Assembly (NCBI GenBank): GCA_016213445.1
Contig: JACRAJ010000001.1
Location: forward strand, 142,203-206,202
Length of the DNA: 64,000 nt
Direction of reading: 5' to 3'
DNA from: Candidatus Azambacteria bacterium
GTDB taxonomy: Bacteria; Patescibacteriota; Minisyncoccia; UBA10092
Program-made: the position numbers and the translations under genes
Shown: in pieces, positions 12,936 through 31,075 of the stretch
How positions within the stretch are numbered: the stretch's first letter is position 1
How the letters are laid out: each line of letters starts with the position of its first letter
The notes under the pieces: generated by a model
The model's input: only the letters and a program-made list of their open reading frames with translations
Databases searched by the model: none
Told to the model about the DNA's origin: nothing

Positions 12936-13745
12936 TCAAGATTGATTGAATTTTTTTACGAACGCATTGAATTTATTTTGCAGATCCAGCCAACTTTGCA
13001 AAACAACTTTAAATTGTTCCGTCGCCGCCATTGCGCCCATAGGGTCGTTTTCAATGTTGGCAAACGCCCTTAATACATTCGCGGTGATTCTTAACAGCCG
13101 GATTTCGTCTATCGTTAAATTTTTTAAACTTGATGGAACGGGTATTTGTTCGAGTTGGTCGGCAGCTGTTTCATAAGCGGTTATTATCGGCGAAAGTTTT
13201 TCCATTCCGGTGTCATTGTTTGCGACTATGCTGTTTAACGTATCAAAAAGGGAACCGAGGGGCTTTAAATTTTTATTCAATACCGCCTGCATTTCCAAAA
13301 TATATTTTTTTATCGCCGGCTTACTATTGTCGTTTGAAATTTTAAGGCTTGGCGGATTGATGTTTAAAATGTTTTCATTTGCTTTTTTCAGTCCGTCGGA
13401 AATAAAATTTTCCGCCATGGCGTTTACATCGGGCGCGTTAAGCCCCGGATTTGACGAATCGATTTTCGGGTTCGAATTTTTGGAGATTAGTTCCTCTGTT
13501 AATTTTGCCGCAAAATTGTCGGTTATGTTTTGCGTTCCCCTGATTGTCGGGATGATATTGTTTGAAAGATCGCCGATTTTATTATCCGTTAAGTTGTTTG
13601 TTTGATTTTCGTCGGCGGAAGCGAGGTAATTGGCGCCATTATTGTTCACATATACGGTTTTTGAAGCCGGCGCAAACGCAAAAACGCCGAAAGCGACTCC
13701 GGCCGATATCGCGAATGCGATTGCAAAGCGGTTTTTTATAATCAT
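12936..13745 (-). CDS. Secreted/anchored hypothetical protein, first gene of the T4SS-like operon
   Basis: 269 aa with an N-terminal TM. On the minus strand a TATAAT sits about 11 nt upstream of the ATG. Confidence 0.65.
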   Translation of the reverse strand: MIIKNRFAIAFAISAGVAFGVFAFAPASKTVYVNNNGANYLASADENQTNNLTDNKIGDLSNNIIPTIRGTQNITDNFAAKLTEELISKNSNPKIDSSNPGLNAPDVNAMAENFISDGLKKANENILNINPPSLKISNDNSKPAIKKYILEMQAVLNKNLKPLGSLFDTLNSIVANNDTGMEKLSPIITAYETAADQLEQIPVPSSLKNLTIDEIRLLRITANVLRAFANIENDPMGAMAATEQFKVVLQSWLDLQNKFNAFVKKFNQS

Positions 13746-13823
13746 TTCATTAAATTATACCGCAAAAAATTCTCTTGTTAAAGCGGAGTTTTTACGCAAT
13801 ATGTGGATAACTCGAATAGCGAT

Positions 13824-13971
13824 AAAAATAAAATCAAATATAATTTTTCTCGCGCGTTCGCCCCGCCGGCGCGGGGCTCTCTGTCCGTTCTCGCCCCGAC
13901 GCTCCCGCTACGCGGAGACCATGCCGTCGGGGCTGCGGAAGCTGCGAAAAATTATATTTGATTTTATTTTT
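13824..13971 (+). repeat. Palindromic structured intergenic element, copy 1 (148 bp)
   Basis: Perfect 25-bp AT-rich terminal inverted arms: 13824-13848 AAAAATAAAATCAAATATAATTTTT pairs with 13947-13971. The GC-rich core has hairpin CCCCGC-CGGC-GCGGGG, a long stem GCCCCGACG/CGTCGGGGC, and conserved TGTCCG, ACCATGC and AAGCTGCG blocks. Confidence 0.85.
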
Positions 13972-14806
13972 CTTTCTTAATTTTGTATGGAATTTCGGTT
14001 GTCAGAGAAAGCCATTGTTTCAAACTTAAATTTTCCGCTCTGGCGTTTTCCGGAATATCCAGTTTTTTGAATATTTTCGCGAGTTTTTCTTTTGGCGCGC
14101 CGAATTTTTTGGAAAGGTTTCCGATTAGTTTTTTTCTCGGCTGGGAAAAGCCGGCTTTAACAGTCGCAAAAAACGCGCCGCGCGTCTTTTGCGGCGGCTT
14201 TTTGCGGGGAATGATTTTTATTATAGCCGAATCAATTTTTGGCTTGGGCCAAAAAGCTTCCGCCGGAACATAATCGACAATTTTTGCGTCGGCGTAAAAT
14301 TGAACGCTTGCCGCCAAAAGATTCGCGCGAGGAGGTTTTGCGCATATTCTTTGCGCCACTTCTTTTTGAACCATTAAGACCATTAATTGCGGAGGTTTTT
14401 CGGCTTCCAGCCACTGCCGTATTAAAAAAACGGCGATGTTATATGGCAAATTCGCCGCAATTTTATATTTTTCGAGCGATAGGTTTCCGACACCTATCGA
14501 TCGGGCGTCGGCGTGGACAATTTTTATGTTTGAAAAATCGGCCAGCGTTTCTTTTAAAATTGAAATCATCAGCGGATCTTTTTCAATGGCGGTGATTTTA
14601 GCGCCGGCTTTCGCCAGTTCCCGGGTAAGCGCGCCAAGCCCCGGCCCGATTTCGACAATCGCATCGCTTTTCTTTATTTCCGCGGCGGCAGTCATTTGAT
14701 TAAGGGCTTTTTTTGACAAAATAAAATGCTGGCCAAGGTATTTTTCCGCCCTCGCCCCGTGTTTTTTCAGCAGTTCTTTTATTGTTGTCTTGTCGGTTAA
14801 GTCCAT
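13964..14806 (-). CDS. rsmA: 16S rRNA (adenine1518/1519-N6)-dimethyltransferase
   Basis: 280 aa. Contains the SAM motif VEIGPGLGALT and overall KsgA architecture. The stop codon lies inside the arm of repeat copy 1. Confidence 0.9.
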   Translation of the reverse strand: MDLTDKTTIKELLKKHGARAEKYLGQHFILSKKALNQMTAAAEIKKSDAIVEIGPGLGALTRELAKAGAKITAIEKDPLMISILKETLADFSNIKIVHADARSIGVGNLSLEKYKIAANLPYNIAVFLIRQWLEAEKPPQLMVLMVQKEVAQRICAKPPRANLLAASVQFYADAKIVDYVPAEAFWPKPKIDSAIIKIIPRKKPPQKTRGAFFATVKAGFSQPRKKLIGNLSKKFGAPKEKLAKIFKKLDIPENARAENLSLKQWLSLTTEIPYKIKKEK

Positions 14807-14818
14807 ATTATTCCAACC

Positions 14819-16687
14819 TTATTTCCGGCAGGTCGTCTGCGCCGAGCCGTATCCGTCGACCAAAGAACGGAAATTAACCAGATTCTGCGGCAATTCCATT
14901 ATAAACCGCGACGGCAATGTTTCTTTCTTTTCGCCCCACAACGCGCGTTGTTTTGCGAACAGCAGTTTTAAATATTTTTTCGCCCGCGTCATTCCAACGT
15001 AGCAAAGCCGCCTCTCTTCTTCCAAATCCTGAAAAGAATAGGCCGAACGGGAATGAGGCATTAAATTTTCTTCGGCTCCGGCGATAAAAACAGCGTCGAA
15101 TTCCAAGCCTTTCGCCGAATGGAGCGTCATTAAATTAAGCTGTTTGCCGGCGCCCGCATTTCTTTCCGTTTGCATTAAAGCGACCTCGGCGAGAAAATCT
15201 CCGATATTTTCATGCATCCCGGCCAAGCCGATAAGTTCTTTTATATTTTTAATTCTTGATTCAAATTCCGGTTCGCCGTCCGGCCCGAAATCGGGAAATT
15301 TTTTCTCCAAATAATCGTAATAGCCGGTTTGTTTGACGACGGCTTTTACGAATTCCGCCGGCGATAAAATTTCGGTTTGTTTTTTTAAATTTTCCCAATC
15401 GGCAACCGGCTGTCCGCCTTGGGCGGCAAACGCTCTTTTGCCGATAATTCCGACGATTCTTTTCAGGCTGATTTCATCTTTCGGGCTTTGCGCCAGCCGC
15501 AAATAAGCCAAAACGTCTTTTATTTCTTTTCTTTGGTAAAATTTTACGCCGCCGATTATGCGATACGGCAGGTTGGCGTAAAGGCAGGCTTCTTCAAGAA
15601 CCCGGGATTGCGCGTTGGTTCGGTATATCACGACAATTTCATCAAGATCGATGCCCGAATATTTGTTGAGATTTATCGCTTCGTTCACGATGAATTCGGC
15701 CTCTTTCCTTTCGTTGGCGGTTTCAATGACTTCTATCAGCGCTCCCGGAGAATTTTCGGTCCACAATTTTTTTTCTTTTCTTTCGGTGTTTTTTGTAATA
15801 ATTTCATTGCTGGCGTTTAAAATGTTTCCGGTGGAGCGGTAATTTTGTTCAAGTTTCACCAGTTTGGCATCGGGATAATCTTTTTCAAAATTCAAAATAT
15901 TTCTGAAATCGGCATGCCGCCAGCCGTAAATCGCCTGATCGGGGTCGCCGATGGCGAAAATATTTTTGTATTTTTGCGCCAGAAGGCTTATTAAAAGATA
16001 TTGGGCGCGGTTGGTGTCTTGATATTCATCAACTAAAATATGCCGGTATTGTTTCCGGTATTTTTCCAGAATTTCCGGCCGCGACTGCCAAATTTTTATC
16101 GGCAATATTATCAAATCGTCAAAATCGACTGCATTGGCGGCTTTGAGGCGGCTCTCATAGAGGTTATAAAAATCGGCGAATTGTTTTTTGTAAAAATCGT
16201 CGGCGCCGGCATTTTCGTAATCTTTCAATTCGCTTTTTATTTTGGAAACCAAATTTAAAAAAGAAGCGGGTTTGAATTTTTCCCGCGACAAGTTCATTTC
16301 GGCCATAATGTCTTTGGCCAAATTAAGCGCGTCGTCTTCGTCGTAAATAACGAAATTCTTTTTATATCCCAAACATTCTATTTCTTGCCTTAGAATTTTT
16401 ACGCCGAAGCTGTGGAACGTGCCTACAAATAAATTTTCAATTTTCAATTTTAAATTTTCAATTTCAAGGAGTTTTTTTATTCTGTTTCTCATTTCTTCCG
16501 CGGCCTTATTGGTAAACGTTACCGCGAGTATGTTTTCGGGATTTATTCCTTGCGACAACATATGGGCGATGCGGTGGGTCAAGGTTTTGGTTTTGCCGCT
16601 GCCGGCGCCGGCCAAAATCAAAACCGGACCGCCGATGGTTGTCGCGGCCTCCCTTTGTTTTTCATTTAGTCCGGCTAATATATTCAT
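14819..16687 (-). CDS. pcrA: UvrD/PcrA-family ATP-dependent DNA helicase
   Basis: 622 aa. Motifs seen: AGAGSGKT, VDEYQDTN, and TLHSAKGLEF...YVGMTRA. Confidence 0.9.
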   Translation of the reverse strand: MNILAGLNEKQREAATTIGGPVLILAGAGSGKTKTLTHRIAHMLSQGINPENILAVTFTNKAAEEMRNRIKKLLEIENLKLKIENLFVGTFHSFGVKILRQEIECLGYKKNFVIYDEDDALNLAKDIMAEMNLSREKFKPASFLNLVSKIKSELKDYENAGADDFYKKQFADFYNLYESRLKAANAVDFDDLIILPIKIWQSRPEILEKYRKQYRHILVDEYQDTNRAQYLLISLLAQKYKNIFAIGDPDQAIYGWRHADFRNILNFEKDYPDAKLVKLEQNYRSTGNILNASNEIITKNTERKEKKLWTENSPGALIEVIETANERKEAEFIVNEAINLNKYSGIDLDEIVVIYRTNAQSRVLEEACLYANLPYRIIGGVKFYQRKEIKDVLAYLRLAQSPKDEISLKRIVGIIGKRAFAAQGGQPVADWENLKKQTEILSPAEFVKAVVKQTGYYDYLEKKFPDFGPDGEPEFESRIKNIKELIGLAGMHENIGDFLAEVALMQTERNAGAGKQLNLMTLHSAKGLEFDAVFIAGAEENLMPHSRSAYSFQDLEEERRLCYVGMTRAKKYLKLLFAKQRALWGEKKETLPSRFIMELPQNLVNFRSLVDGYGSAQTTCRK

Positions 16688-16874
16688 GTCTGATGGGATT
16701 TAGTATAGCGGCAAATTCTTCAATCTCAAAATTTCAGCGTGCGCGGCAATAATGGCTGGGGATAACTACCTTGACCGGCGGAGTGGCCGCTTGGTAAAAT
16801 TAAAAATACCAGCTTGGCAGATTTGCTGTTATTACTCTTAATTTTGGCTTATTTATACCATTTTTAGACAAATT

Positions 16875-17690
16875 TTGCTGAAAGGCAAAAAACACCCCTT
16901 GGGGGCGTCTTTGTTTTTAATTTTGGCTTTGATTTTTGCCGCGCATTCCTTTAATTTTGGCGACTTGATCGGAAAAATCGGATTGGGAAAAGACTCGATT
17001 GTCGGCGGCGAGGTTACAGAAATCGTGTCGGCGCCTTCATTGACTGACGGATTGAGGGAAAATCCAATGTTTCAATCGGCTTTAGCCGCTTCCGCGGAAA
17101 TAAGCGGCGGCAATGACATTGATCTTGAAAGCGCTCCTTATGACGCGAGAGATCTTTTAATAACCGGAGAGGATTCGATTCTTCAAAACCAAAATCCGAT
17201 GACCGAGCCGCCGGTTGTTGAGCCAAAGTCTTCGCCGGCGCCGGCTAGGCCCAAAAAAGCGCCTTTGCCGCGCTATACCGCCGGTCCTTATCTCGACGGC
17301 TATTTTATTTTTCCAACCAACGGTTTCAATCGCGGGAAGCTTCACGCTTATAATGCCATTGACATATCGCGCGGCGACAGCTGCCTTTCCGAAAATATTC
17401 CGGTTTACGCGGCGGCTTCGGGGGCGGTATCGGCGGTTTATCCCACCGACAGCGCCAGTCGTTATGCCAACGGCGGCTACGGCAACAATATTTTAATTCT
17501 TCATCCTAACGGAGTTTCAACTCGCTATGCCCACCTGAAATCAATTTTAGTTTCAACCGGCCAATACGTTAATCAAGGAAGCATTATCGCTTTTATGGGC
17601 GGCTATCCGGGCAATGTCGGTTCGGGCAATTCAACGGGCTGCCACCTTCACTTTGAAGTCCGCGGCGCCAAAAACCCGTTTGTGAGGTAA
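16875..17690 (+). CDS. M23/LytM-family peptidoglycan endopeptidase
   Basis: 271 aa with a TTG start and an N-terminal TM. Contains the HxxxD-type motif (HAYNAIDI) and a C-terminal GCHLHFEV. Confidence 0.85.
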   Translation: MLKGKKHPLGASLFLILALIFAAHSFNFGDLIGKIGLGKDSIVGGEVTEIVSAPSLTDGLRENPMFQSALAASAEISGGNDIDLESAPYDARDLLITGEDSILQNQNPMTEPPVVEPKSSPAPARPKKAPLPRYTAGPYLDGYFIFPTNGFNRGKLHAYNAIDISRGDSCLSENIPVYAAASGAVSAVYPTDSASRYANGGYGNNILILHPNGVSTRYAHLKSILVSTGQYVNQGSIIAFMGGYPGNVGSGNSTGCHLHFEVRGAKNPFVR

Positions 17691-17702
17691 ATTGCTTGAT
17701 TC

Positions 17703-17857
17703 TAAATAAAAACCAAATATAATTTTCCTCGCGCATTCGCCTCGCCAGCGCGAGGCTCATTGTCCGATGAAAGCATTTTATTTTTCCGCCTAAAGCGGAA
17801 AAAACCATGCTAAAATGTTTTCATAAGCTTCGGAAAATTATATTTGGTTTTTATTTA
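17703..17857 (+). repeat. Palindromic structured intergenic element, copy 2 (155 bp)
   Basis: Arms at 17704-17726 and 17834-17856 are perfectly complementary over 23 bp. The core has hairpin CCTCGC-CAGC-GCGAGG, stem ATGAAAGCATTTTA/TAAAATGTTTTCAT, and an inner hairpin TTTTTCCGC...GCGGAAAAA. ACCATGC and AAGCTTCG are conserved. Confidence 0.85.
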
Positions 17858-17867
17858 CTTATCAATA

Positions 17868-19406
17868 TTAAACATCCTCTCTCGGCCTGTATTGAAGCGC
17901 TTCGGCCAGGTGCCGGGGTTTTATATTTTCGCAATTATCCATGTCGGCGATGGTGCGGGAAATTTTCAGCAGGCGGTGATATGTCCTGGCCGAAAGTCCC
18001 ATCGAGCTGACCGCATTTTTCATCATTTTTTCCGCTGTTTCGTCCAAAGCGCAATATTTTTTGATGTGGCGGACCGACATTTCGCGGTTGGTTAAAATAT
18101 CTTCGTTTTCAAACCGCCTCGCCTGGATTTCTCTTGTTCGGGCCACTCTTTTTCTCACTGTTTCGCTGGTTTCGCCGAAACTTTCTTTGGCCATTTCCTC
18201 GTATTTCAAACGCGGCACCTCAACATGGAGGTCTATTCTATCCAAAAGCGGGCCCGACAGTTTTCTTTTATAACGTATTATCTGGCTTGCGGCGCAAACG
18301 CATTCTTTCATGTCGTCGTTCAAATATCCGCAGGGGCAGGGATTCATCGCCGCGACCATCAAGAATTGGGCGGGGAAAGTTAAACTGCCTTGGGCGCGGG
18401 AAACCGTTACCCGGTTTTCTTCCAGCGGCTGCCTTAAATTTTCCAAAACGTCGCGGGAAAATTCGGGAAATTCATCCAGAAAAAGAACGCCGCGGTGGGC
18501 CAAAGAAATTTCTCCGGGTCTTGGCCACGCGCCGCCGCCAACCAATGACACGCCCGAAGCCGTGTGATGCGGCGCGCGAAACGGACGTTGCGACAAAAAC
18601 AGCCGATCTTCTTTTAAAAGTCCGGCAACGCTCCAGATTCTTGTCACTTCAATCGCCTCTTCAAGACTTAACTTGGGCAAAATCGAAGCCAAAGCTTTTG
18701 CCAAAAGGGTTTTTCCGGAACCCGGCGGACCGGAAAAAATAATATTGTGGTTGCCGCCGGCGGCGATTTCCAAAACTCTTTTCGCTTTTTCCTGCCCGCG
18801 GATCAAAGCCAAATCAACGTCGGGTTTTTCTATGAAGTTTTTTTCAAGTTCTTTGTTCAAATCGGAATTTTTATATGCGGTTAACAATTTTTTGTTTTCA
18901 AGATGTTCCAAAATTTCATTCAAATTGGCGGCGCCGACGATTTCTATGTCGGAAACAAGCGTCGTTTCGGCGATGTTTTCTTTCGGAACGAACAAGGTTT
19001 TGAAACCGCGATTTTTTGCCTCGATTGCGATTGACAGCGCGCCGTTGACGGGCCTCAAGGCGCCGTTTAAAGCCAGTTCGCCGACAAAAAGTTTCTTTTC
19101 CGGATCGAATTTCGTCTGGCCGGAAATAAGCAAATATCCCAGCGCTATCGGCAAATCGTACGCCGGCCCTTCTTTTTTCAAATCGGCCGGCGCCAGATTG
19201 ATGGTGACTCTTTTGTTGCGGCGGCTTGGCGGGGAAGCGCCGGAATTTTTCAACGCCGCGGAAACGCGGTCTTTTGATTCTTTAATGGCGATATCGGGCA
19301 GTCCGACAATGTTGAAACTAAAAAGGCCGGGCGACAAATCGCACTCGACCTCCACAATTTTCGCGTTTATTCCGCACAACGCGGCCGAATAAAGTTTAGA
19401 CGACAT
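17868..19406 (-). CDS. comM: YifB/ComM Mg-chelatase-like AAA+ protein
   Basis: 512 aa. Contains GPPGSGKT, VLFLDEFPEF, and the C-terminal Mg-chelatase ChlI-like region. Confidence 0.9.
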   Translation of the reverse strand: MSSKLYSAALCGINAKIVEVECDLSPGLFSFNIVGLPDIAIKESKDRVSAALKNSGASPPSRRNKRVTINLAPADLKKEGPAYDLPIALGYLLISGQTKFDPEKKLFVGELALNGALRPVNGALSIAIEAKNRGFKTLFVPKENIAETTLVSDIEIVGAANLNEILEHLENKKLLTAYKNSDLNKELEKNFIEKPDVDLALIRGQEKAKRVLEIAAGGNHNIIFSGPPGSGKTLLAKALASILPKLSLEEAIEVTRIWSVAGLLKEDRLFLSQRPFRAPHHTASGVSLVGGGAWPRPGEISLAHRGVLFLDEFPEFSRDVLENLRQPLEENRVTVSRAQGSLTFPAQFLMVAAMNPCPCGYLNDDMKECVCAASQIIRYKRKLSGPLLDRIDLHVEVPRLKYEEMAKESFGETSETVRKRVARTREIQARRFENEDILTNREMSVRHIKKYCALDETAEKMMKNAVSSMGLSARTYHRLLKISRTIADMDNCENIKPRHLAEALQYRPREDV

Positions 19407-19779
19407 GTTCCATATCGGTTTTTGCGGCGGGATTGGCTTTCAGCCTGTCTTCGGGAATTTCCGCGCCGCAAGTTTCGCAAGTTCCGTATGTTCCTTTTTC
19501 GATTTTTTCCAGAGCGCCATTAACGTCTCTAAGCCGCAATTCCAACCGGTCGGAAAGCGCTTTATTTGTCATATCCTCGTCGGATTCGTTGACGCTTATT
19601 CCCCCTTCCAATTCTTCTTCGCTGGTGATTTCATTTTCTTCCCATTCGGAATGTTTAATATCCCAATCGCCTTTTAAATTCGGATCGGGCGTTGCGATGG
19701 TTTCCAGTTCGCTTATCAAAAGATCGCGTTCTTTTTCCAGCGCGGTTTTTAATTCATTTGTCGTTTTTTGGTCTAACAT
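19396..19779 (-). CDS. DksA/TraR-family C4 zinc-finger protein
   Basis: 127 aa with a coiled-coil N-part followed by GTYGTCETCGAEIPEDRLKANPAAKTDMEH. Confidence 0.8.
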   Translation of the reverse strand: MLDQKTTNELKTALEKERDLLISELETIATPDPNLKGDWDIKHSEWEENEITSEEELEGGISVNESDEDMTNKALSDRLELRLRDVNGALEKIEKGTYGTCETCGAEIPEDRLKANPAAKTDMEHVV

Positions 19780-19799
19780 ATTTTTAGAATATCAAAGTT

Positions 19800-20160
19800 A
19801 AATTTTAAAAGCAATAAAAGCAGCTTTATTCACGGTCAACTTTCCGAATCCCCGAACAAATCAATAGGTGTCGGAAACCTATCGGTTTAAACCGATAGGT
19901 TTAAAGATTTTTAACGGCAAACGAAAAAGGGCCCCGTTGAACCCCTAAAAAATATATTTATATGGGTTGGTGCCCTTTGGACCCGCGTCTGCCTTCGCGG
20001 TAAAAAACGTGAGCCTCGTTTCCATTTTACGGTCGAGACCATAATTAAATTCTTTTAAAAAGAACAAAATCGCGCGATGAGCAGATCATCGCATTCGAGT
20101 ACGAATACTCGAAAATCCTAAAACAGAAACAAGGATCTATATATATTTTCTAATATCTTT
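19800..20160. ncRNA. Candidate structured non-coding RNA, class unassigned
   Basis: A 450-bp gene-free gap between two minus-strand genes. It holds a perfect 28-bp palindrome at 19875-19902 and hairpins at 20074-20092 (GCGATGA/TCATCGC) and 20096-20111 (CGAGTA-CGAA-TACTCG, which is a UUCG loop on the minus strand). A possible minus-strand promoter is at TTGACG around 20171-20176. Confidence 0.25.
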
Positions 20161-20199
20161 AAAACCCCGTCAACGCCAAGTTATCCACAACCCGCAAGG

Positions 20200-20224
20200 A
20201 AAATTATTTATATTGTTTTTAAAA
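20200..20224 (+). repeat. Solo arm of the palindromic element family
   Basis: AAAATTATTTATATTGTTTTTAAA is identical over 24 nt to the right arm of copy 3 (24689-24712). No convincing partner arm was found. Confidence 0.6.
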
Positions 20225-20232
20225 GATAACTG

Positions 20233-21363
20233 CTATTTAACAAAACTGTTTATCGACGCTTCGAGAGATTTTATATAGTCGTAAGATACCGTTTGGCCGG
20301 TTAAATCTTGCAAAATAACAAACATTCCCGCGCTTGAAGTTGTAAAAATAAGATAATCGTTGTAAATGGCGTAATTTAGCGAAGCGAAAGGAACGCCAAC
20401 ATTTAAATATCGCACCGGCTGGCCGATAAAAAGATACGGTTTAAATGTTTGGGAAATTTTCGGCAATGCGGAATCGCTTAAAAATAAAGGAAAAATATCG
20501 TTTGCCAGCGTAGTTTTTTCCCAATCAGCCGTTTGCTTTTGCGCCAACCCCCGATCTTTTGTTTTGAGGATTAAAATCGGCCGCACTCCTTCTTTTTGAG
20601 CGAAATAAGCGAAAGCGAATTCATTTTCGCAGTTTGACAGGAAATCTTTGGGAGCGGATATTTGCATTAAATTCAAAAATTCTTCGGCGGTTATCGATTC
20701 TCCTTTGTATGTTATTTTCAGTTGTTTAACCGAGGCGCGAGGTTCTTCGATTTCAGCTTCGGATTTCAATGTCTGAATCAAGGTTGCCGATGTTTTCGAC
20801 GGCAGGTCGATTGTTATGGATTTGTTGGGCAGTTTGGTAAAAAATTTTATGGGCGCGGTTGTGGTTGCCGTTGGAATTGCCGGCAATGTCGGGGTTATGG
20901 CCGCAGGCGGTGTTATTTGAGGCGCCGCCGCCGGTTTGCTTTGGACAAAAATTTTCCAGTAGCCGTAAAGACCTGAAAGTGCCAAAACAATTATTGCCAA
21001 GCCGATTATTCCGAGTTTTATCCAAACCGGCGCTATTTTATACGCGGGTTTTGGAATTTCGGCTTCTTTCGGTAAAACCGGTTTTGGCGGCACGATTAAA
21101 ACCGGCGGCCGGCCGATTGGCGGAGGAATGGAAGGTTTTTCTACCGGGGCGAAAGGTTTTTCCGCCGGAGGCAGAGGCTGGGGCGCGGGCATTTGCGCTT
21201 GCGGCGCTTTATATTGAGATTCTTGAAAAATAGGTGAAACTGGCGCCGGCGCTTGCGCCGGTTTTACTTCTTCTTTTTTTGGGGCGATTCCGGACAATTT
21301 TTCCAGATCGCTTTTCATTGTTCTTATAACAATGTCTTCCGGTTTTTGCATTGGGTCGGCCAT
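20233..21363 (-). CDS. Membrane-anchored proline-rich hypothetical protein
   Basis: 376 aa. A Pro-rich N-region and one TM (WIKLGIIGLAIIVLALSGLYGYW) are followed by a C-terminal globular domain. Confidence 0.65.
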   Translation of the reverse strand: MADPMQKPEDIVIRTMKSDLEKLSGIAPKKEEVKPAQAPAPVSPIFQESQYKAPQAQMPAPQPLPPAEKPFAPVEKPSIPPPIGRPPVLIVPPKPVLPKEAEIPKPAYKIAPVWIKLGIIGLAIIVLALSGLYGYWKIFVQSKPAAAPQITPPAAITPTLPAIPTATTTAPIKFFTKLPNKSITIDLPSKTSATLIQTLKSEAEIEEPRASVKQLKITYKGESITAEEFLNLMQISAPKDFLSNCENEFAFAYFAQKEGVRPILILKTKDRGLAQKQTADWEKTTLANDIFPLFLSDSALPKISQTFKPYLFIGQPVRYLNVGVPFASLNYAIYNDYLIFTTSSAGMFVILQDLTGQTVSYDYIKSLEASINSFVK

Positions 21364-21439
21364 TGAAATTATTTTAACATAAAAATATCCCCGCTTACAG
21401 CGGGGGTATTTTTATCAACTTATCCACATGATTGCATTT

Positions 21440-23536
21440 TTATTTTTCAACGTCTTTCAGCGATAAACTGATTTTACCGCCTTCGACTCTTTTTATTTTT
21501 ACTTTCACTTCGTCGCCGACATTCACGATGTCGGTAACTTTATTGACGCGATAAGACGCCAGTTCGGAAATATGGATCATTCCGTCTCTATTTCTTCCGA
21601 ATTCCACAATGGCCCCGAAATCAAGAATTTGAACCACTTTGCCGACAACAATATCGCCGACTTTATATTCTTTAACGATACCTTCCACCATTTCTTTGGC
21701 TTTAGCGCCGCTTTCTTCATTTTCGGCGGTTATAAAGACAATCCCCGATTCTTCAATGTCGATTTTAGCGCCGGTTTGGTCGATAATTTCATTTATAACC
21801 TTGCCGCCCGGGCCGATAACTTCTCTTATTTTATCAACCGGGATTTTAACGGTGATAATTCTCGGCGCCAAAGGCGACAACTCCGATTTCGGCGCGCCAA
21901 TGGCTTTTAACATATTTTCCAAAATTTCCAACCGCGCTTTTTTGGCTTGATATAAGACTTCTTTCAAAATTTTCGTGTCAATGCCATTTATTTTAACGTC
22001 CATTTGCATTGCGGTGATGCCGTCTTTGGTGCCGGCCACTTTAAAATCCATATCGCCGTGGTGGTCTTCCGGCCCCTGGATGTCGGTGAGAATTTTATAA
22101 TCTCCTTTTCCGTCGCTCATAAGGCCCATGGCTATGCCGGCCACCGGTTTGGAAATCGGGACCCCGGCGTCCATTAAAGCTAAAACAGAGCCGCAAACCG
22201 ATGCCATCGACGAAGAGCCGTTTGAAGATAAAACCTCGGAAACAACTCTGATGGCATAGGGGAAGTCTTCTTTTGGGGGCACGACAGGCAAAAGCGCTCT
22301 TTCCGCCAAAGCGCCGTGGCCTATTTCTCTTCTTCCCGGAGCGCCCATTCTGCCCGTTTCCCCAACCGAAAACGGCGGGAAATTATACATATGCATAAAA
22401 TGCTTTTTTGTGGAAATAACCATCCCTTCGATAATCAACACATCGGAAGGAGAACCTAAAGTGAGGGCCGATAAAACTTGCGTTTCCCCTCTTTGAAATA
22501 GGCCGCTGCCGTGAGTGCGCGGCAAAACTTCTATTTCCGAAGTCAACGCTCTCAATTCGTCGAGTTTTCTTCCGTCCGGCCGCCTGCCTTTTTCAAGCAC
22601 GTTTTCATGCACCATTTTGTCAATCGCTTCTTCGAAGAAAATCTCCGCTTCCTGTATTTTTTCTTCGCCGAGTTCGGCAAAGAATTCTTTCATTCGGCTT
22701 TTAAGCGTTTCCAAATTGGAAACGCGTTTTGATTTGTCTTTTTCGTAAATCGCGTTTTCCAAAGCGTTGCCGGCGCTTAAAAACTTCATCACTTCGTTTT
22801 TTAATTCCATGTCGGCGGTTTTTACGGTTAGCGCCGCTTTGGCGGTTTTAAAATCGCCGGCGATTTTTTTGTTGAAATTCGCCAAGTCTTTAAACGATTG
22901 TTCGGCGAAATCTATGCCTTTTGCCAATTCATCTTCCCCGATTTCATTTAAGGGGCCGGCTTCAACCATGTTTATTTTCAAATCCGAAGAAACCGAGACC
23001 ACTAAATCGGCCAACCCATTTTCGCGCTCCTCAAAAGACGGATTGACAATCCATTTATCGCCCGTTAGGCCGATTCTCACGGCCGCAACGGGGCCATTCC
23101 AGGGGATATCGGAAATCATCAATGCGATAGAGGCGGCGTTTATCGCCAAAACGTCGGGATCGTTTTTTTCGTCAACCGAAAGAACCGTGGTAATGATTTG
23201 AATTTCATTTCTTATGTTTTGGTCGAAAAGCGGCCTTATGGAGCGGTCGATTAACCGGGCGTTTAAAATCGCTTCTTCCGAAGGGCGGCCTTCGCGCCGC
23301 ATGAACCGCGAGCCCAATATTTTTCCGCGGGCGTAATATTTTTCTTCGTAATCAACGGTTAGAGGAAAAAAATCTCTTCCGCTTTTTCTTTCTCCCGCCA
23401 TAACGGCGGTTGCCAAAACCACTGTTTCGCCCAATTGGGCGAGAACGGCGCCATTGGCTTGGTTGGCCATTTTGCCGATTTCTATTTTCAGCGTTTGGCC
23501 GGCAAGTTCCAATTCATATTTTTTAATTTCAGACAT
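21440..23536 (-). CDS. pnp: Polyribonucleotide nucleotidyltransferase (PNPase)
   Basis: 698 aa with two RNase PH domains, a KH domain and an S1 domain (…GDIVVGKVVQILDFGAIVEF…). Confidence 0.95.
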   Translation of the reverse strand: MSEIKKYELELAGQTLKIEIGKMANQANGAVLAQLGETVVLATAVMAGERKSGRDFFPLTVDYEEKYYARGKILGSRFMRREGRPSEEAILNARLIDRSIRPLFDQNIRNEIQIITTVLSVDEKNDPDVLAINAASIALMISDIPWNGPVAAVRIGLTGDKWIVNPSFEERENGLADLVVSVSSDLKINMVEAGPLNEIGEDELAKGIDFAEQSFKDLANFNKKIAGDFKTAKAALTVKTADMELKNEVMKFLSAGNALENAIYEKDKSKRVSNLETLKSRMKEFFAELGEEKIQEAEIFFEEAIDKMVHENVLEKGRRPDGRKLDELRALTSEIEVLPRTHGSGLFQRGETQVLSALTLGSPSDVLIIEGMVISTKKHFMHMYNFPPFSVGETGRMGAPGRREIGHGALAERALLPVVPPKEDFPYAIRVVSEVLSSNGSSSMASVCGSVLALMDAGVPISKPVAGIAMGLMSDGKGDYKILTDIQGPEDHHGDMDFKVAGTKDGITAMQMDVKINGIDTKILKEVLYQAKKARLEILENMLKAIGAPKSELSPLAPRIITVKIPVDKIREVIGPGGKVINEIIDQTGAKIDIEESGIVFITAENEESGAKAKEMVEGIVKEYKVGDIVVGKVVQILDFGAIVEFGRNRDGMIHISELASYRVNKVTDIVNVGDEVKVKIKRVEGGKISLSLKDVEK

Positions 23537-24110
23537 TGATTTTTATTTTTTTATTAGAGGTTTTTCCGCCGGAAGCAGATCTGCCCTTTGTGGATAATTT
23601 TTTGCTTGGGATGGTAAATTTTTTGGGATCGGCCGACATATCGATAAAATCATCCGCCGCTTCTTTCAATTTTGCCGAAGTGGAGCGGCCGAAAGCGATA
23701 ACCTCAACCTGCCGTCCCCTTCCTCTGATATATTCCACAAGCGGAACGAAATCGCCGTCGCCGGTGCCAAGCACCAAGGCGTCGATTGTTGATTCGCTAA
23801 GCCGAATGGCGTCTATGGCCATTCCGACGTCCCAGTCGCCCTTTTTCACTCCGCCGGGGAAAATTTGAAGGTCTTTCACCTTAGTTTCAATGCCCATTTT
23901 AGTGAGGGCTTCGAAAAAAGCCGCTTCTTCCCCGGTTTCGGTTTTTATAACGTAAGCGAGGGCGCGAATTAATCTGCGGCCCGCTAAAGCCGCTTTTAAA
24001 ATTTCATTGAAATTGACCCGGGCGTTGTATAAATTTTTGGCGGAATGATAAAGATTCTGAACGTCTATTAAAATGGCGACTCGCTGGTCTTTATGCTTTA
24101 TTATGGGCAT
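23529..24110 (-). CDS. NYN/LabA-like PIN-fold domain protein
   Basis: 193 aa. Contains VAILIDVQNLYHSAKNL and ...LGTGDGDFVPLVEYIRGRGRQVEVIAF. Confidence 0.8.
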   Translation of the reverse strand: MPIIKHKDQRVAILIDVQNLYHSAKNLYNARVNFNEILKAALAGRRLIRALAYVIKTETGEEAAFFEALTKMGIETKVKDLQIFPGGVKKGDWDVGMAIDAIRLSESTIDALVLGTGDGDFVPLVEYIRGRGRQVEVIAFGRSTSAKLKEAADDFIDMSADPKKFTIPSKKLSTKGRSASGGKTSNKKIKINV

Positions 24111-24183
24111 GTAAATTTAAAACTCAAAAGTCAAAATTGAAATAAAAAGTTTAAGATTTATAATTTTATTTTTAACTTTTGTC

Positions 24184-24450
24184 TTACTTCTTTAATCCTA
24201 ATTTTTTAATCAAAGCTTTATACCTTTTTTCGTTTTCTTTCGCCAGATAATTCAAAAGGCGCTTTCTTTTTGAAACCATGCCTAAAAGGCCGCGCCGCGA
24301 ATGATTGTCTTTGGGGTGTTTTTTCAAATGTTTGGCAAGCTGATCTATCTCCTCGCTTAAAATGGCAACTTGAACTTCAGTCGACCCTGTGTCGGTTGGA
24401 TGAACCTTGTGCTTTTCGATTACTTTTGATTTTGCTTTAGTTTTTAGCAT
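24184..24450 (-). CDS. rpsO: 30S ribosomal protein S15
   Basis: 88 aa. Contains [49 protein letters not shown]. Confidence 0.95.
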
Positions 24451-24565
24451 TGTTTAAGCATAATATCACAGGATTTATTTTTCGTAAATAGCGCGTGGTA
24501 AAATATTTTGCGACATTGCGGTTTTTTGGGTATAATTAAGATTATTTAAGTTCAATCCCGTTGTT

Positions 24566-24712
24566 TTTAAAACCAATATAAATAATTTTTCTCGCGCATT
24601 CACCTCGCCAGCGCGAGGCTCATTGTCCGATGAAAGCGTTTTGTCCCCCTGCGGGGGAACCATGCCAAAACGCTTTCATAAGCTTCGTAAAATTATTTAT
24701 ATTGTTTTTAAA
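24566..24712 (+). repeat. Palindromic structured intergenic element, copy 3 (147 bp)
   Basis: Arms at 24566-24589 and 24689-24712 match at 23 of 24 positions. The core has hairpin CCTCGC-CAGC-GCGAGG, stem ATGAAAGCGTTTT/AAAACGCTTTCAT, and an inner hairpin CCCCC-TGC-GGGGG. ACCATGC and AAGCTTCG are conserved. Confidence 0.85.
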
Positions 24713-24737
24713 GAAGGAAAAAAATTATTTTATTCAA

Positions 24738-25667
24738 ATGAATATCAACGATTTATTAAAGGACTATCTTGATTATTTAGAGATAGAAAAAAACCGCTCG
24801 GTGAAGACGCGGGCTAATTACGAGCGTTATTTGAAAAAATTTTTAAGTTTTTCAAAAATTTCCAAACCGGAGCAAATTTCCCAAGACTTGACAAGGCAAT
24901 ACCGTTTGTGGCTTAATAGGCAATTTTCTAGCCAAGGTTCGGATAAAACCATAAAGAAAAACACTCAAAATTATCACTTAATCGCTTTAAGAAGTTTTTT
25001 AAAGTATCTTTCCAGGCGCGACATAAAAGTTTTGCCGGCGGACAAGATTGAATTGGCGAAACAATCGGAGCGGCAGGTTGTTTTTCTGGAAAACAACGAG
25101 CTTGAGCGCCTGTTAAAAGCGCCAAGCGGCGATTCTTTCAAGGATTTGCGCGACAAAGCGATTTTAGAACTTTTGTTTTCAACCGGATTGCGCGTTTCGG
25201 AACTCTGCGGACTTAATCGCGATTCGATAAATTTAACCGCGATAGCCGGCAAATCCGGCGAATTTGCCGTGCGCGGCAAGGGCGACAAAATTCGCCTTGT
25301 TTTTATTTCCGATACCGCCAAAGCAACTTTAAACAAATATCTTGCCAAGCGCAGGGATGTTGACGAGGCGCTATTTACAAGAAACATAAAAAATCCCGCC
25401 AAGTCAGATAATTTACGGCTAACGCCAAGAAGTGTTGAGCGCTTGGTAAAGTATTATGCCGCTAAGGCGGGATTGTCGAAAAAAGTGACTCCGCACGCCT
25501 TGCGCCATAGTTTTGCCACTGATTTGCTTATAAACGGCGCCGATATTCGCTCCGTTCAATCGCTTTTAGGCCACTCAAATATTACGACAACCCAAATTTA
25601 CACTCACATAACAGATAAGCAGCTTCGCGAAGTTCATCAGCAGTTTCACGGGAAACGAAGGAAATAA
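24738..25667 (+). CDS. xerC: Tyrosine site-specific recombinase XerC/XerD family
   Basis: The start is taken at MNINDLLKDYLDYLEIEKN; the track's upstream extension reads through repeat copy 3. The C-terminus is HALRHSFATDLL...LLGHSNITTTQIYTH. Confidence 0.85.
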   Translation: MNINDLLKDYLDYLEIEKNRSVKTRANYERYLKKFLSFSKISKPEQISQDLTRQYRLWLNRQFSSQGSDKTIKKNTQNYHLIALRSFLKYLSRRDIKVLPADKIELAKQSERQVVFLENNELERLLKAPSGDSFKDLRDKAILELLFSTGLRVSELCGLNRDSINLTAIAGKSGEFAVRGKGDKIRLVFISDTAKATLNKYLAKRRDVDEALFTRNIKNPAKSDNLRLTPRSVERLVKYYAAKAGLSKKVTPHALRHSFATDLLINGADIRSVQSLLGHSNITTTQIYTHITDKQLREVHQQFHGKRRK

Positions 25668-27977: not shown

Positions 27978-28048
27978 GGGCCCATAGTAAAGTGGCATTA
28001 CGCTACATTCGCATTGTAGAGGCGGGAGTTCGATTCTCCCTGGGTCCA
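27978..28048 (+). tRNA. tRNA-Ala (anticodon CGC); integration target
   Basis: Acceptor GGGCCCA/TGGGTCC carries the G3:U70 identity pair. Anticodon arm CTACA-TTCGCAT-TGTAG. The discriminator A is followed by CAA rather than CCA because of the insertion. Confidence 0.9.
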
Positions 28049-29563
28049 CAATTCAAAACTTTTCAACTTTTTCGCTGGGGACAAGTCGGAATGCTCGCCG
28101 CACCCAGTGGCGCGGCTCGCAAGGAATTGAGCCCAAAAATCCCACGGCGCAGAAAACGAAAAGGAAACGGATTTGTCCAAAAGTTGATGGTTCGTTCCAA
28201 CTTTTTGGACAAATGCCTTTATTTCTCCGAAACTGTCGCTCCGCGACAGTTTTTCGGCTTTCTGTATGTCTAAAATCCAACTCCGCAATGGTTCAATCCA
28301 ATTCTTTCCCATGCGTCCAAAATCGCTCTTTTGGGACGCAAGAGAAACTTTTTGTTTCAAAAGTTCTTCCTTTTTGACGAGATAACTTTCCTTTGGTATG
28401 TCGCCGTCAATATAAGAAGAAACGAGCTTGTCCAGTTTCTCTTGCGTCTCTTTCTGATTTCCCCGCAGATTTTGGACGAATGTTTGCGATGAGTCTACTT
28501 GCTCCTTTTCCCACGCTTCAACTTGCTTCAACATTTTTCCCGTCCACTCATCGCAAAGCGCAACGCTTTGAAGCCGTGATTTTAGTTGCGAAACAAGCAA
28601 ATCTTCTCGTAAATATTTTTGAGCACAATTTCCCTTTTTCCGCGTACACCGATAGTAGCGATATGTTCCGCCGTTGCCGTGCGCGTATTGAGCGGTGATT
28701 GCGCTTCCACATTGTCCACAGGTGAGTAGTCCGGTAAAAGGGAAATTGTGCCTCTGTTTGGATTTGCGAGGTTTTGCTTTTCGCTTCAAAATCTCCTGCA
28801 CGGCTTCAAAGGTTGCGAGGGAAAGAATTGGCTCAAAGCGTCCGTCAAAGTATTCGCCTTTGTGCGCCACAAAACCGAGATATGCCCGATTGGTGAGCAT
28901 CCGATGGACGGATGCTTTGGCAAGTGGCGTTCGGTGCCGAGTTTCAATACCAAGTTCCGCCAAAAACTCCGAAAGAGATTTAAGCGTATGCGTGCCTTTG
29001 GCGAATTCCTCAAACGCTCGCACTACAATTTTTGATTTCGCGGGGTGCGGTTCAATCGTGCGAGTTTTGGGATTGTTCACATAGCCAAAGGGTGCGAGCG
29101 TCAGCCATTCTCCACGGCGGAGTTTTTGGCGGATACCGCGATTGATGTTCTCTACCAAATTATCCGAGTAATATTTGGATTGACCGAACGCCACTTGCAA
29201 CATAAATTTCCCTTGCGGAGTTGGCTCAAACCAAAATGTCGGAAAACGCAAAGAAACGATTTTTTCGATATCCACGAGATAGATGACGCGTCCGCCGTCA
29301 ACGCTATTGCGAGCAAGGCGATCCGGATGCCAGGCGAGTATTCCCACGCCTTGCGATTGCTCAATAAGCGTCATCATCTCGTTGAATTTCTCTCGTCCGG
29401 GTTTCTTTGCGCTTTCCGCCTCGGTAAATTCTTGGAGAATTTCCGCATTTTCTCTACGCGCATATTCTCGTAGCTCAAAGAGTTGAGCTTCAATACTCAT
29501 AATTTGGTGGTCGTCATCTTCGGTGGACTTGCGAGCGTAGAGAAAATATTTTGGTTTGAGCAT
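27998..29563 (-). CDS. Large serine recombinase (resolvase domain + recombinase domain + zinc ribbon)
   Basis: 521 aa. The N-terminus is YARKSTEDDDHQIMSIEAQ (catalytic Ser region). A Cys cluster CGQCGS...YYRC follows. The last 15 codons read antisense through the tRNA-Ala gene. Confidence 0.9.
   Translation of the reverse strand: MLKPKYFLYARKSTEDDDHQIMSIEAQLFELREYARRENAEILQEFTEAESAKKPGREKFNEMMTLIEQSQGVGILAWHPDRLARNSVDGGRVIYLVDIEKIVSLRFPTFWFEPTPQGKFMLQVAFGQSKYYSDNLVENINRGIRQKLRRGEWLTLAPFGYVNNPKTRTIEPHPAKSKIVVRAFEEFAKGTHTLKSLSEFLAELGIETRHRTPLAKASVHRMLTNRAYLGFVAHKGEYFDGRFEPILSLATFEAVQEILKRKAKPRKSKQRHNFPFTGLLTCGQCGSAITAQYAHGNGGTYRYYRCTRKKGNCAQKYLREDLLVSQLKSRLQSVALCDEWTGKMLKQVEAWEKEQVDSSQTFVQNLRGNQKETQEKLDKLVSSYIDGDIPKESYLVKKEELLKQKVSLASQKSDFGRMGKNWIEPLRSWILDIQKAEKLSRSDSFGEIKAFVQKVGTNHQLLDKSVSFSFSAPWDFWAQFLASRATGCGEHSDLSPAKKLKSFELWTQGESNSRLYNANVA
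28050..28151 (+). repeat. Repeat Y (left end of element)
   Basis: Its 102 bp differ at 5 positions from the reverse complement of 29614-29715. Confidence 0.9.
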
Positions 29564-29613
29564 AATTTTTGAATTAGGATTTTAGATATACAGTCTGTTT
29601 CCGTTTCGTTCAA

Positions 29614-29715
29614 TGCGCCGTGGGATTTTTTGGCTCAATTCCTTGCGAGCCGCGCCTCTCGGCGCGGCGAGCATTCCGAATTGTCCCCAGCGAAAAAGTT
29701 GAAAAGTTTTGAATT
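29614..29715 (-). repeat. Repeat Y, inverted internal copy
   Basis: Reverse complement of 28050-28151 with 5 substitutions. On the plus strand it encodes an alternative recombinase-tail cassette, APWDFLAQFLASRASRRGEHSELSPAKKLKSFELWDILKIARTHFEER*. Confidence 0.9.
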
Positions 29716-29719
29716 GTGG

Positions 29720-29858
29720 GATATTCTAAAAATAGCGCGAACCCATTTTGAAGAAAGATAACGCCTCGCTTCGCTCGGCGAATCCGCTCGGGCGGCGCGG
29801 GAAGGAGGGGTGGGGGGAGGAATGCCCGCGCCGCCCTCGCTTTCGGAAAGTCGCGCGC
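29720..29858 (-). repeat. Repeat X, inverted internal copy
   Basis: Reverse complement of 31076-31213 with one substitution and one C-run indel. It is contiguous with inverted Y across a GTGG core at 29716-29719. Confidence 0.9.
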
Positions 29859-29935
29859 TAAAATTTCCAAAAATCACAATAAAATAGTAAAATGAGAATG
29901 GGTCGATTATCTTAAATTTTCTAAAAAATATTTCT

Positions 29936-30154
29936 ATGGATAGAAAACATTTCAAATGTCTGTTATGGAAAACCTTGTGGGGTTTGAGCGTCTTGTCTCT
30001 TGTCGCCGCATGGTTTTCGATAAAATCAAGTGCGGTACTTGGGCTTGATGCGGCGACTTGGTTTTGGAACGCTCTAATTTTTGTTGCGCTATCAATTCCG
30101 ATTAAGCTAGATTGCCATTCCTGCGATGTGTGTGGAATAAGTCCGCGAGCTTGA
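29936..30154 (+). CDS. Small two-TM membrane protein with C-terminal CHSCDVC motif, hypothetical
   Basis: 72 aa with two hydrophobic helices. Located in the cargo module of the element. Confidence 0.45.
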   Translation: MDRKHFKCLLWKTLWGLSVLSLVAAWFSIKSSAVLGLDAATWFWNALIFVALSIPIKLDCHSCDVCGISPRA

Positions 30155-30249
30155 CGAGAAACTTTTTTCATGCTATCATAGCGGCAGAATGAAAAGTGGT
30201 GTGTAGCCACTTTTCCAGTTGAAAACAAACCGAAAAATGGAGGTGTCAA

Positions 30250-30990: not shown

Positions 30991-31075
30991 ATCGCAATCA
31001 AGGGCGACCGAGGCAAAAGCCAAGGTCGCCCTTTCTCTTTCTTTGATTTTTTGGTAAATTAAATTCATAATAGTT

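Follow-up and report, generated by a model that had tools for sequence, protein, structure and literature searches.

We analyzed a 64-kb stretch (here, the window) of a metagenome-assembled genome (MAG) of Candidatus Azambacteria, a bacterium of the candidate phyla radiation (CPR), as an earlier note on this DNA had supposed its host to be. That note described four intergenic palindromic elements, and we found four full copies at exactly the coordinates it gave (Table 1). The genes that adjoin the copies are housekeeping genes: rsmA, uvrD, an M23 peptidase gene, comM, rpsO-pnp, an xerC/D-like recombinase gene, and gyrA. The four elements are members of a large, undescribed family, or superfamily, of folded intergenic repeats in Parcubacteria.

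The architecture that the four copies were said to share is confirmed. Each copy combines AT-rich arms of 24 to 26 bp with a pair of GC-rich hairpins, a long stem interrupted by a 7-nt bulge, and blocks that are unpaired and conserved; CTCNNTGTCCG, ACCATGC, and AAGCTNCG each occur in all four copies, and every hairpin variant listed earlier is found among them. Each copy folds better than its shuffled versions (z = -8 to -10), with none of 200 shuffles folding as well. The stop codon of rsmA lies inside the 3' arm of copy 1, as had been read, and a program-called open reading frame (ORF; 24630-25667) begins within copy 3. Two candidate features of the element were rejected. An ATG...TAA frame in subfamily B was rejected as coding sequence, given hairpin-2 lengths of 15 to 23 nt that disrupt the frame. 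TATAAT promoters were set aside as well: inward-facing boxes are present in the arms of copies 1 and 2 (10 to 11 of 12 matches) and are not conserved across the family.

Table 1. Positions of the element copies in the window and of the parts of copy 1
Feature	Position	Strand	Description
Copy 1	13824-13971	+	Full element, subfamily A core, 134.4 bits; flanked by 269-aa gene (minus) and rsmA (minus)
Copy 2	17703-17857	+	Full element, subfamily B core, 145.9 bits; flanked by convergent M23 peptidase gene (plus) and comM/yifB (minus)
Copy 3	24566-24712	+	Full element, subfamily B core, 148 bits; flanked by divergent rpsO (minus) and xerC/D-like recombinase gene (plus)
Copy 4	52149-52295	-	Full element, inverted, subfamily A core, 131.7 bits; flanked by gene for metallo-beta-lactamase (MBL)-fold protein (minus) and gyrA (minus)
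Copy 2 arms	17703-17728 / 17832-17857		26 nt, complementarity 100%
Copy 3 arms	24566-24589 / 24689-24712		24 nt, complementarity 96%
Copy 4 arms	52149-52174 / 52270-52295		26 nt, single mismatch
Solo 3'-terminal fragment (CGCAAGGAAAATTATTTATATTGTTTTTAAAAG)	~20186-20222	+	Arm nearly equal to that of copy 3; without core and 5' arm
Copy 1, 5' AT-rich arm (P1)	13824-13849	+	26 nt, 100% complementary to 13946-13971
Copy 1, junction TCGCGCGTTC	13850-13859	+	Conserved; TCGCGC near-invariant in family
Copy 1, hairpin 1	13860-13877	+	GCCCCGC / CGGC loop / GCGGGGC
Copy 1, conserved block CTCTCTGTCCG	13877-13887	+	
Copy 1, long stem (P3), 5' strand GCCCCGACG	13893-13901	+	
Copy 1, hairpin 2	13902-13917	+	CTCCCGC / TAC / GCGGAG, one C bulged
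Copy 1, conserved 7-nt bulge ACCATGC	13918-13924	+	3' side of long stem
Copy 1, long stem (P3), 3' strand CGTCGGGGC	13925-13933	+	
Copy 1, conserved junction AAGCTGCG	13939-13946	+	
Copy 1, 3' AT-rich arm	13946-13971	+	26 nt; holds rsmA stop codon (13964-13966, minus)

The family beyond the window

A first scan of genome contigs with a loose pattern returned 118 stretches. The only record from Parcubacteria among them, a MAG (L027), was opened and holds a true homolog; the remaining titles name unrelated phyla, and those matches were taken, unread, to be due to chance. A stricter pattern, TGTCCG-N25-45-ACCATGC-N14-AAGCTNCGNAAA, matched 87 metagenome stretches, and all but two of these have the full architecture, which gives approximately 85 further copies. 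The metagenome copies come from groundwater (Hainich and Rifle-type samples), and most have arms of 21 to 29 nt. Copy number differs greatly between genomes, with four copies in the 64 kb of the window versus one strict match in a 585-kb contig. Viral contigs gave no match.

We built an alignment and a covariance model from 53 distinct copies. With filters off, a covariance-model scan (a type of search that the earlier note had proposed for the whole genome and for related CPR genomes) recovered exactly the four copies in the window, at 131 to 148 bits. In the reverse direction the same copies score only 25 to 33 bits; therefore, the element has a defined polarity. The model also detects diverged sister families that share the architectural plan: besides AT-rich arms, they have a hairpin whose loop region is CCAGCG and a long stem that encloses a second hairpin, and their bulge reads ACCATGC, ACCGTGC, or ACCAATC. 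Some members of the sister families are separated from a canonical copy by only 10 nt and are inverted relative to it (L182, L122).

No named RNA family accounts for the element, in line with what had been noted: Rfam gave no match at the gathering threshold over the whole window, and at E<=10 with permissive filters it gave none over 13500-25000 or over the L027 homolog. We found no description of the family in the literature on CPR and Parcubacteria repeats, structured RNAs, CPR miniature inverted-repeat transposable elements (MITEs), or the hairpin-forming doublets of repetitive extragenic palindromic (REP) sequences known as REPINs and their REP-associated tyrosine transposases (RAYTs).

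Fold and covariation

The family unit is approximately 145 bp long and consists of pairing AT-rich arms of 21 to 29 bp and an asymmetric three-way-junction core with two GC-rich hairpins. Short unpaired motifs are kept across the family: TCGCGC, the CAGC loop, TGTCCG, the ACCATGC bulge, and AAGCTTCGG. In the alignment, TGTCCG, ACCATGC, and AAGCTNCG are invariant because the search pattern demanded them; TCGCGC, a UC/UC internal loop, and the CAGC loop are near-invariant though absent from the pattern. The loop of hairpin 1 is CGGC in copy 1 and CAGC in nearly all other family members. Below hairpin 1, the two bases after TCGCGC co-vary with the two bases before TGTCCG (alignment columns 36-61 and 37-60), which adds two base pairs, G-C and A-U, to the structure.

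Hairpin-1 and hairpin-2 sequence types vary independently, without the correlation expected if one dimeric protein read both. Palindromy of the hairpin-2 loop is mixed: complementarity of the pair on either side of the central dinucleotide is seen in 9 of 11 even-length hairpins, and that of the pair around the center in 9 of 31 odd-length hairpins. In some copies (L128, L132, L151) this loop is C(UUCG)G on the forward strand.

Among the four window copies, RNAalifold found compensatory double changes in 31 of 53 pairs. For the covariation test on the 53 sequences, we specified the structure ourselves and used column shuffles and slid registers as controls. Paired cells made up 93.8% of the total versus 76.7% in column shuffles, and 46 of 59 pairs showed double changes, with one-sided changes almost absent. 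The covariation score was 0.371, compared to 0.108 in shuffles (none of 500 reached the observed score) and 0.04 to 0.08 in slid registers. A-U to U-A flips and mirrored shifts are abundant among the double changes. The helices thus co-vary between copies, outer arms included, as had been claimed for the four window copies, and do so far beyond controls. These data show that the pairings are maintained by compensated changes.

Genomic position and turnover

The 5' end of the element lies no more than approximately 15 nt from the upstream stop codon, and approximately 5 to 25 nt separate its 3' end from the next start codon. Grouped by homologous neighbors, the copies fall into 37 locus types: 15 in sense and 7 in antisense orientation between co-directional genes (so that about one-third of these 22 are antisense), 6 between convergent genes, and almost none between divergent genes, of which window copy 3 is a rare case. 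Several conserved operons carry the element at an internal junction, namely, groES-groEL (in four species), tsaE-polA, secY-adk, and nusB-rnc. Because the downstream genes in these operons are essential and co-transcribed, the element is not a strong terminator.

We looked up GroES homologs and then read their groES-groEL spacers. Four spacers are filled, with the element directly behind the stop codon (L125, L134, L166, L198). In Azambacteria relatives the spacer is empty and measures 4 nt (L208/L209, L219, L221), 19 nt (L212/L213), or 31 nt (L214). Small palindromic inserts of other kinds fill the spacer at L211 (1498-1592), L216 (1010-1084; also in L217), and L218 (629-754); those of L211 and L216 share the form of a hairpin plus TGCTCAT, and that of L218 has ATTATCCGAATAATCCGAATA-type palindromes. 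The differing inserts indicate that several unrelated miniature elements target the same spacer, and the filled, empty, and otherwise-filled states together mark it as an insertion hot spot with turnover. Polymorphic presence and absence, which the earlier note had suggested looking for, is therefore seen at orthologous spacers among related genomes. For the window's own organism, exact-protein look-ups for strain polymorphism returned only short-read contigs that end at the element.

No direct repeat was found in the 12-nt flanks of approximately 85 copies or in comparisons of filled with empty groES-groEL sites, although a 1- to 3-nt A/T duplication is possible, as the target-site boundaries are blurred because they lie in A/T runs. 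Together, these observations show that the element is inserted DNA in AT-rich spacers behind stop codons, present in either orientation and gained and lost at orthologous sites. We rejected a DnaA-box-like motif, TGTGGATAAC, as part of the element: it stands 9 to 13 nt upstream of some copies, belongs to the neighboring promoter regions, and is also found approximately 55 to 60 nt upstream of start codons elsewhere in the window.

Conservation at shared loci

Three of the four window copies have same-locus counterparts in other species (copy 1 at L145; copy 2 at L174; copy 4 at L136, L160, and L183). At such loci, paired elements are 0.74 to 0.93 identical, whereas 4-fold degenerate sites of the flanking genes are 0.33 to 0.59 identical, which is near saturation. 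The L125 and L134 elements have identical 29-nt arms and long stems, and most stem positions of hairpins 1 and 2 are changed between them, with all differences compensated; the changes between the same-locus elements L166 and L198 are mirrored in the two arms. Between copies generally, the inner approximately 14 bp of the arms are similar and the outermost 10 to 12 bp differ, even within one genome. The same-genome pairs L148a/b and L132a/b have a common core and different outer arms, and copy 1 has an arm similar to that of L148a, which belongs to another genome and another locus.

Compensated changes at one locus and shared cores with different arms imply that the elements evolve as a recombining population, which exchanges modules and restores pairing; their sequences are not decaying in the way of dead insertions. 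The earlier note had argued for selection on structure rather than simple MITE copying. Selection on the fold is supported by the compensated same-locus differences and by the excess of identity over 4-fold sites; the contrast with MITE copying was too sharp, since filled and empty groES-groEL sites, adjacent copies, assembly breaks, and sister families all point to inserted, dispersed DNA.

Strand symmetry of the pairing

Arm pairs in the 53 copies comprise 1,208 Watson-Crick cells, 10 G·U cells, and 46 A·C cells. Of the A·C cells, 28 fall in one column; this same column is non-Watson-Crick in 33 of 53 copies, mostly as C·A, which constitutes a position-specific mismatch. At loci where the element is sense ('++'), we counted 13 G·U versus 27 A·C cells plus 16 at the mismatch column; at '--' loci, the counts were 9 and 9. 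Overall, G·U accounts for approximately 1% of cells, shows no enrichment on the transcribed strand, and is no more frequent than A·C. When both strands are folded as RNA, the better fold is that of the antisense strand in 49 of 53 copies.

A strand-specific noncoding RNA is expected to have G·U pairs enriched on the transcribed strand and a uniform orientation, and the family has neither. Because G·U is not enriched on the transcribed strand, the constraint looks equal on both strands. Such strand-symmetric pairing argues for a DNA-level or orientation-independent constraint, and it fits either folded single-stranded or cruciform DNA or a need for a compact hairpin in whichever strand is transcribed. 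The choice between RNA and DNA, left open before, therefore leans away from a classical strand-specific RNA, given the near-pure Watson-Crick pairing, the rare wobble, and the antisense third of operon-internal copies.

Quasipalindrome correction by template switching is an established process (PMC7202029), which the references listed in PMC5941160 also support. Correction of this kind could add to the perfect complementarity of the element, but it leaves the persistent position-specific mismatch and the conserved unpaired motifs unexplained.

Search for a mobilizing enzyme

For tblastn searches for an autonomous partner, the queries were IS200 TnpA and a RAYT-like consensus. No TnpA or TnpB was linked to the element at the searched loci, and in 658 kb of loci we found no autonomous element in the form of split 5' and 3' halves around a gene. 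In the window, an rve-type transposase gene (32890-33849) and a serine recombinase gene (27998-29563) are not flanked by element arms. One genome of this clade encodes a RAYT-like Y1 transposase, the only one found (L190:3204-3884; PF01797, E 1e-6), which we rejected as the element's partner, as the repeats on its flanks are three copies of a different, simple REP, ATAGGTGTCCGACACCTAT.

This repeat and its variants form a second, simple palindromic family, at L190 positions 3129, 3180, 3889, and 8351, and together with the RAYT-like gene they represent a REP/RAYT system in Parcubacteria. Relatives of ATAGGTGTCCGACACCTAT occur in the window at 14479-14497 (inside rsmA) and 19864-19905. A 7-nt identity, TGTCCGA, between this REP and the conserved block of the element is a lead only.

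Interpretation

We tentatively favor, at somewhat less than even confidence, reading the element as REPIN-like: a long-lived, non-autonomous hairpin element whose fold, in either strand, is under selection and whose unpaired motifs are read by a putative structure-specific enzyme. Nearest in kind are REPINs and other structured bacterial MITEs. The relevant fold would be one that both strands can adopt, either as single-stranded or cruciform DNA or as an orientation-independent mRNA hairpin. The conserved unpaired motifs may form the recognition surface for the putative enzyme, acting on a folded strand; its analogues would be the Y1/HUH transposases of IS200/IS605 and RAYT and the recombinases that act on folded attC or CTX-phi attP. 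Complementarity may be kept partly by selection, if only compactly folding copies are tolerated between tightly packed genes or remain mobilizable, and partly by palindrome-correcting template switching.

Several observations weigh against this reading. No mobilizing enzyme is linked to the element, and the one RAYT-like gene sits among copies of another repeat. The outermost 10 to 12 bp of the arms vary between copies, unlike the terminal repeats that transposases bind. Same-locus elements, including the identical arms of L125 and L134, are conserved where 4-fold sites are not; an inert selfish insertion would not be so conserved, which implies a host-level function or extremely specific re-insertion. 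TCGCGC and the CAGC loop, unforced by the search pattern, are near-invariant, as in functional RNAs. The mismatch that persists at one arm position would be erased by rampant palindrome correction, and sense orientation is somewhat commoner (15:7). Of four readings, which are not mutually exclusive, we rank the REPIN-like element first, followed by a functional RNA module, a host DNA site, and a core inserted into existing palindromes.

A functional RNA in operon transcripts is possible but less likely. It would be either a cis-acting processing or stability module, with the arm helix as an RNase III substrate, or an excised, approximately 100-nt trans-acting RNA with a protein partner; in the cis version, the arm helix would punctuate polycistronic mRNAs or bring the upstream stop codon next to the downstream start. 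Arms of 21 to 29 bp are about the length of a minimal RNase III substrate, and operon-internal copies are mostly sense, with downstream essential genes that exclude a strong terminator; yet the antisense copies at 7 of 22 co-directional locus types, and the better folding of the non-sense strand, count against this reading. The conserved unpaired nucleotides and co-varying stems, the conservation at shared loci far above synonymous sites, and the C(UUCG)G loops on the forward strand all suit an RNA. Against them stand the rarity of wobble pairs, their lack of enrichment on the transcribed strand, and the excess of A·C over G·U at '++' loci. The element has no conserved promoter or terminator, the arm TATAAT being confined to copies 1 and 2, no Rfam match, and a presence that varies at the same operon junction among close relatives. 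A hint of stem-guided RNA processing in this organism comes from the tRNA-Phe of the window and its flanking 22-nt inverted repeat.

A host DNA-level site seems improbable. Such a site, folded or prone to cruciform extrusion, would be bound by a nucleoid protein, gyrase, or an Xer-type recombinase and serve chromosome organization or supercoiling relief, much as bacterial interspersed mosaic element (BIME)/REP sites bind integration host factor (IHF) and gyrase. Strictly Watson-Crick pairing that is symmetric on both strands, tolerance of either orientation, and sequence conservation at shared loci agree with it, and AT-rich arms favor cruciform extrusion. The positions of copy 3 beside the xerC/D-like gene and copy 4 beside gyrA are anecdotal, as neither adjacency is repeated at other loci and no binding protein is indicated. 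The very uneven copy number (4 in 64 kb versus 1 strict match in the 585-kb contig) and the dispensability of the element at orthologous sites also count against a host site.

We hold it more doubtful still that a small mobile core inserts at the dyad of pre-existing A/T-armed terminator palindromes, so that the outer arms are derived from the target and not co-evolved. The window is rich in 13- to 20-bp perfect-stem hairpins (57808-57851, 36827-36869, 21379-21415, 39214-39243, and 42291-42320), whose halves the outer arms of many copies resemble (AAATAAAAGCGG...CCGCTTTTATTT in copy 4, AGCGGTCA...TGACCGCT in L167), and the same-genome pairs with like cores and different outer arms fit as well. 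Empty spacers do hold small AT palindromes (ATTTTT-AG-AAAAAT in L212 and CTAAAATTTAT-AA-ATAAATTTTAG in L216), but we found no empty site that carries a fused palindrome of full length. In addition, arms travel with the element, as the solo fragment carries the arm of copy 3 and the arm of copy 1 resembles that of L148a, and the mirrored changes between L166 and L198 affect both arms at one locus.

It is similarly doubtful that the core is a functional structured RNA of a new class, acting as a ribozyme or RNA-protein scaffold, and spreads as a self-contained cassette with the arms as its RNase III excision signal; if it were, any operon transcript could deliver an approximately 100-nt three-way-junction RNA, and Parcubacteria-wide conservation would reflect a cellular role in reduced genomes.

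Parcubacteria genomes are tiny and tightly packed, yet they carry approximately 145 bp of structured sequence between essential co-transcribed genes (groES/groEL, secY/adk, nusB/rnc). If the REPIN-like reading is correct and the element is mobile DNA, it would give the CPR its first described REPIN-like system, none having been found in the literature, and its branched, asymmetric fold would point to a putative structure-specific mobilizing enzyme. If it is RNA, an uncultivated lineage would hold a widespread class of RNA that lacks annotation. In practice, the element breaks short-read assemblies and can pass for coding sequence, as in ORF 24630-25667.

Other features of the window

A probable diversity-generating retroelement lies at 33975-36553, where local G+C is raised (0.51). 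Its reverse transcriptase (35462-36553) matches RVT_1, and the best NCBIfam match, a group-II-type reverse transcriptase, is well below the cut-off. Upstream of it are direct repeats of 129 nt (34461-34589 and 35014-35142) that are 89% identical and resemble a template and variable repeat; the first lies within the 3' part of ORF 33975-34601 (minus strand).

The tRNA-Phe gene (39128-39200; region 39113-39213) is flanked by a perfect 22-nt inverted repeat, TATAATTCCCAAAGTGCCGCGG / CCGCGGCACTTTGGGAATTATA, which adds 15 bp to the acceptor stem, perhaps as a stem for processing; after it comes a terminator hairpin (39214-39243). The large serine recombinase gene (minus strand) overlaps or abuts tRNA-Ala (27978-28049). 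Long inverted repeats lie at 28046-28171/29594-29719 (126 nt, 92%), 29693-29816/31117-31240 (124 nt, 90%), and 29808-29865/31069-31126 (58 nt, 95%), and a 516-aa ORF (29635-31185) has no family match. The stretch 27978-31240 is probably an integrated or invertible mobile element. The rve-type (IS481/IS3-like) integrase/transposase gene adjoins tRNA-His (32540-32615).

Perfect DnaA-box-like motifs, TTATCCACA, occur at 13802-13810, 20181-20189, 21420-21428, and 23589-23597, four within 10 kb, and three of the four stand approximately 55 to 60 nt upstream of start codons. Allowing up to one mismatch, the window has 21 matches versus 10.2 expected. Motifs of this type also occur at L139/L169, L159/L190, L172/L204, and L199; in related genomes, a large surface-protein gene has an element copy upstream of it, and that copy is preceded by a pair of TGTGGATAACT boxes spaced 57 nt apart. 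The cumulative GC skew is lowest at approximately 22 to 24 kb and gene orientation switches at approximately 24.5 kb; therefore, a replication origin in this part of the window is possible.

Between a dksA-like gene and a 376-aa gene lies a 450-nt noncoding stretch (19780-20232) without an Rfam match. It holds several hairpins, REP-like palindromes, and a DnaA-box-like motif; the solo element arm lies there too, and the stretch could contain an unannotated RNA. The 269-aa gene (12936-13745, minus) has a TATAAT box just 4 nt upstream of its ATG (13745-13765), a spacing that suggests a leaderless mRNA. Many unusually long (13- to 22-bp) near-perfect hairpins lie between genes, at 57808-57851, 36827-36869, 21379-21415, 42291-42320, 54182-54210, and 63557-63605; the order of their parts is A-tract, short G/C block, loop, T-tract. 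Long perfect A/T arms are thus a general trait of the intergenic hairpins of this genome and not of the element alone.

Comparison with known systems

REPINs are short (approximately 100 to 150 bp), non-autonomous, extragenic, multi-copy sequences that are predicted to form a long hairpin in either single-stranded DNA or mRNA; the two sides of this hairpin often show compensatory changes, there is no target-site duplication, copies cluster, and the elements persist for long periods in lineages (PMC3116915). Like REPINs, the element folds as a hairpin with compensatory changes, is extragenic and multi-copy, and has copies that cluster. A REPIN is a symmetric doublet of one conserved 16-mer (REP), whereas the element is asymmetric, as its forward and reverse scores show; its two internal hairpins differ from each other, it has a three-way junction and a 7-nt bulge, and conservation is lowest at its termini. 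We also found no cognate RAYT (PF01797) flanked by the element, the RAYT at L190 having its own REP. The element differs from classical DDE-type MITEs in that its terminal sequence is not conserved between copies and no autonomous transposase element with the same ends was found in the 658 kb of loci or the window.

ERIC/IRU of enterobacteria and Correia/NEMIS of Neisseria are imperfect palindromes of approximately 100 to 155 bp that occupy transcribed intergenic regions and gene 3' ends in either orientation and are co-transcribed. Hairpins of Correia elements are cut by RNase III, which makes these elements both MITEs and RNase III substrates; they are further marked by a conserved terminal inverted repeat of 26 bp, by a TA duplication, and by an IHF site. 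The element, in contrast, has variable arm ends and no duplication was seen; it shares no sequence similarity with ERIC or Correia, belongs to a different phylum, and alone has a branched core with conserved unpaired motifs. Miniatures derived from IS200/IS605, called palindrome-associated transposable elements (PATEs), are recognized by hairpins and not by terminal repeats, leave no target-site duplication, and use a folded single strand as substrate; they carry a subterminal hairpin at each end without the long arm-to-arm helix of the element.

Integron attC sites and the forked hairpin of CTX-phi attP are imperfect palindromes of 57 to 150 nt that conserve structure, not sequence, and have position-specific unpaired bases. 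They sit directly after ORFs, and tyrosine recombinases recognize them as folded single strands. Unlike attC, the element lacks RYYYAAC/GTTRRRY end motifs, its arms being A/T runs, as well as a cassette array and intI, and it is flanked by housekeeping operon genes and occurs in both orientations. The Xer-like recombinase beside copy 3 scores far below the integron-integrase cut-off. Intercistronic RNase III hairpins, such as the sites in phage T7 early mRNA, and REP mRNA stabilizers place a stable helix of about two turns between cistrons; these are simple hairpins that work in one orientation only, whereas the element is a dispersed family with a conserved branched core. As for intrinsic terminators, a terminator scan does not call the elements, and many copies stand between co-transcribed essential genes. 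Overall, the family departs from the definitions of classical MITEs, REPINs, attC sites, and terminators and matches no Rfam family; of the known systems, it works most like a REPIN.

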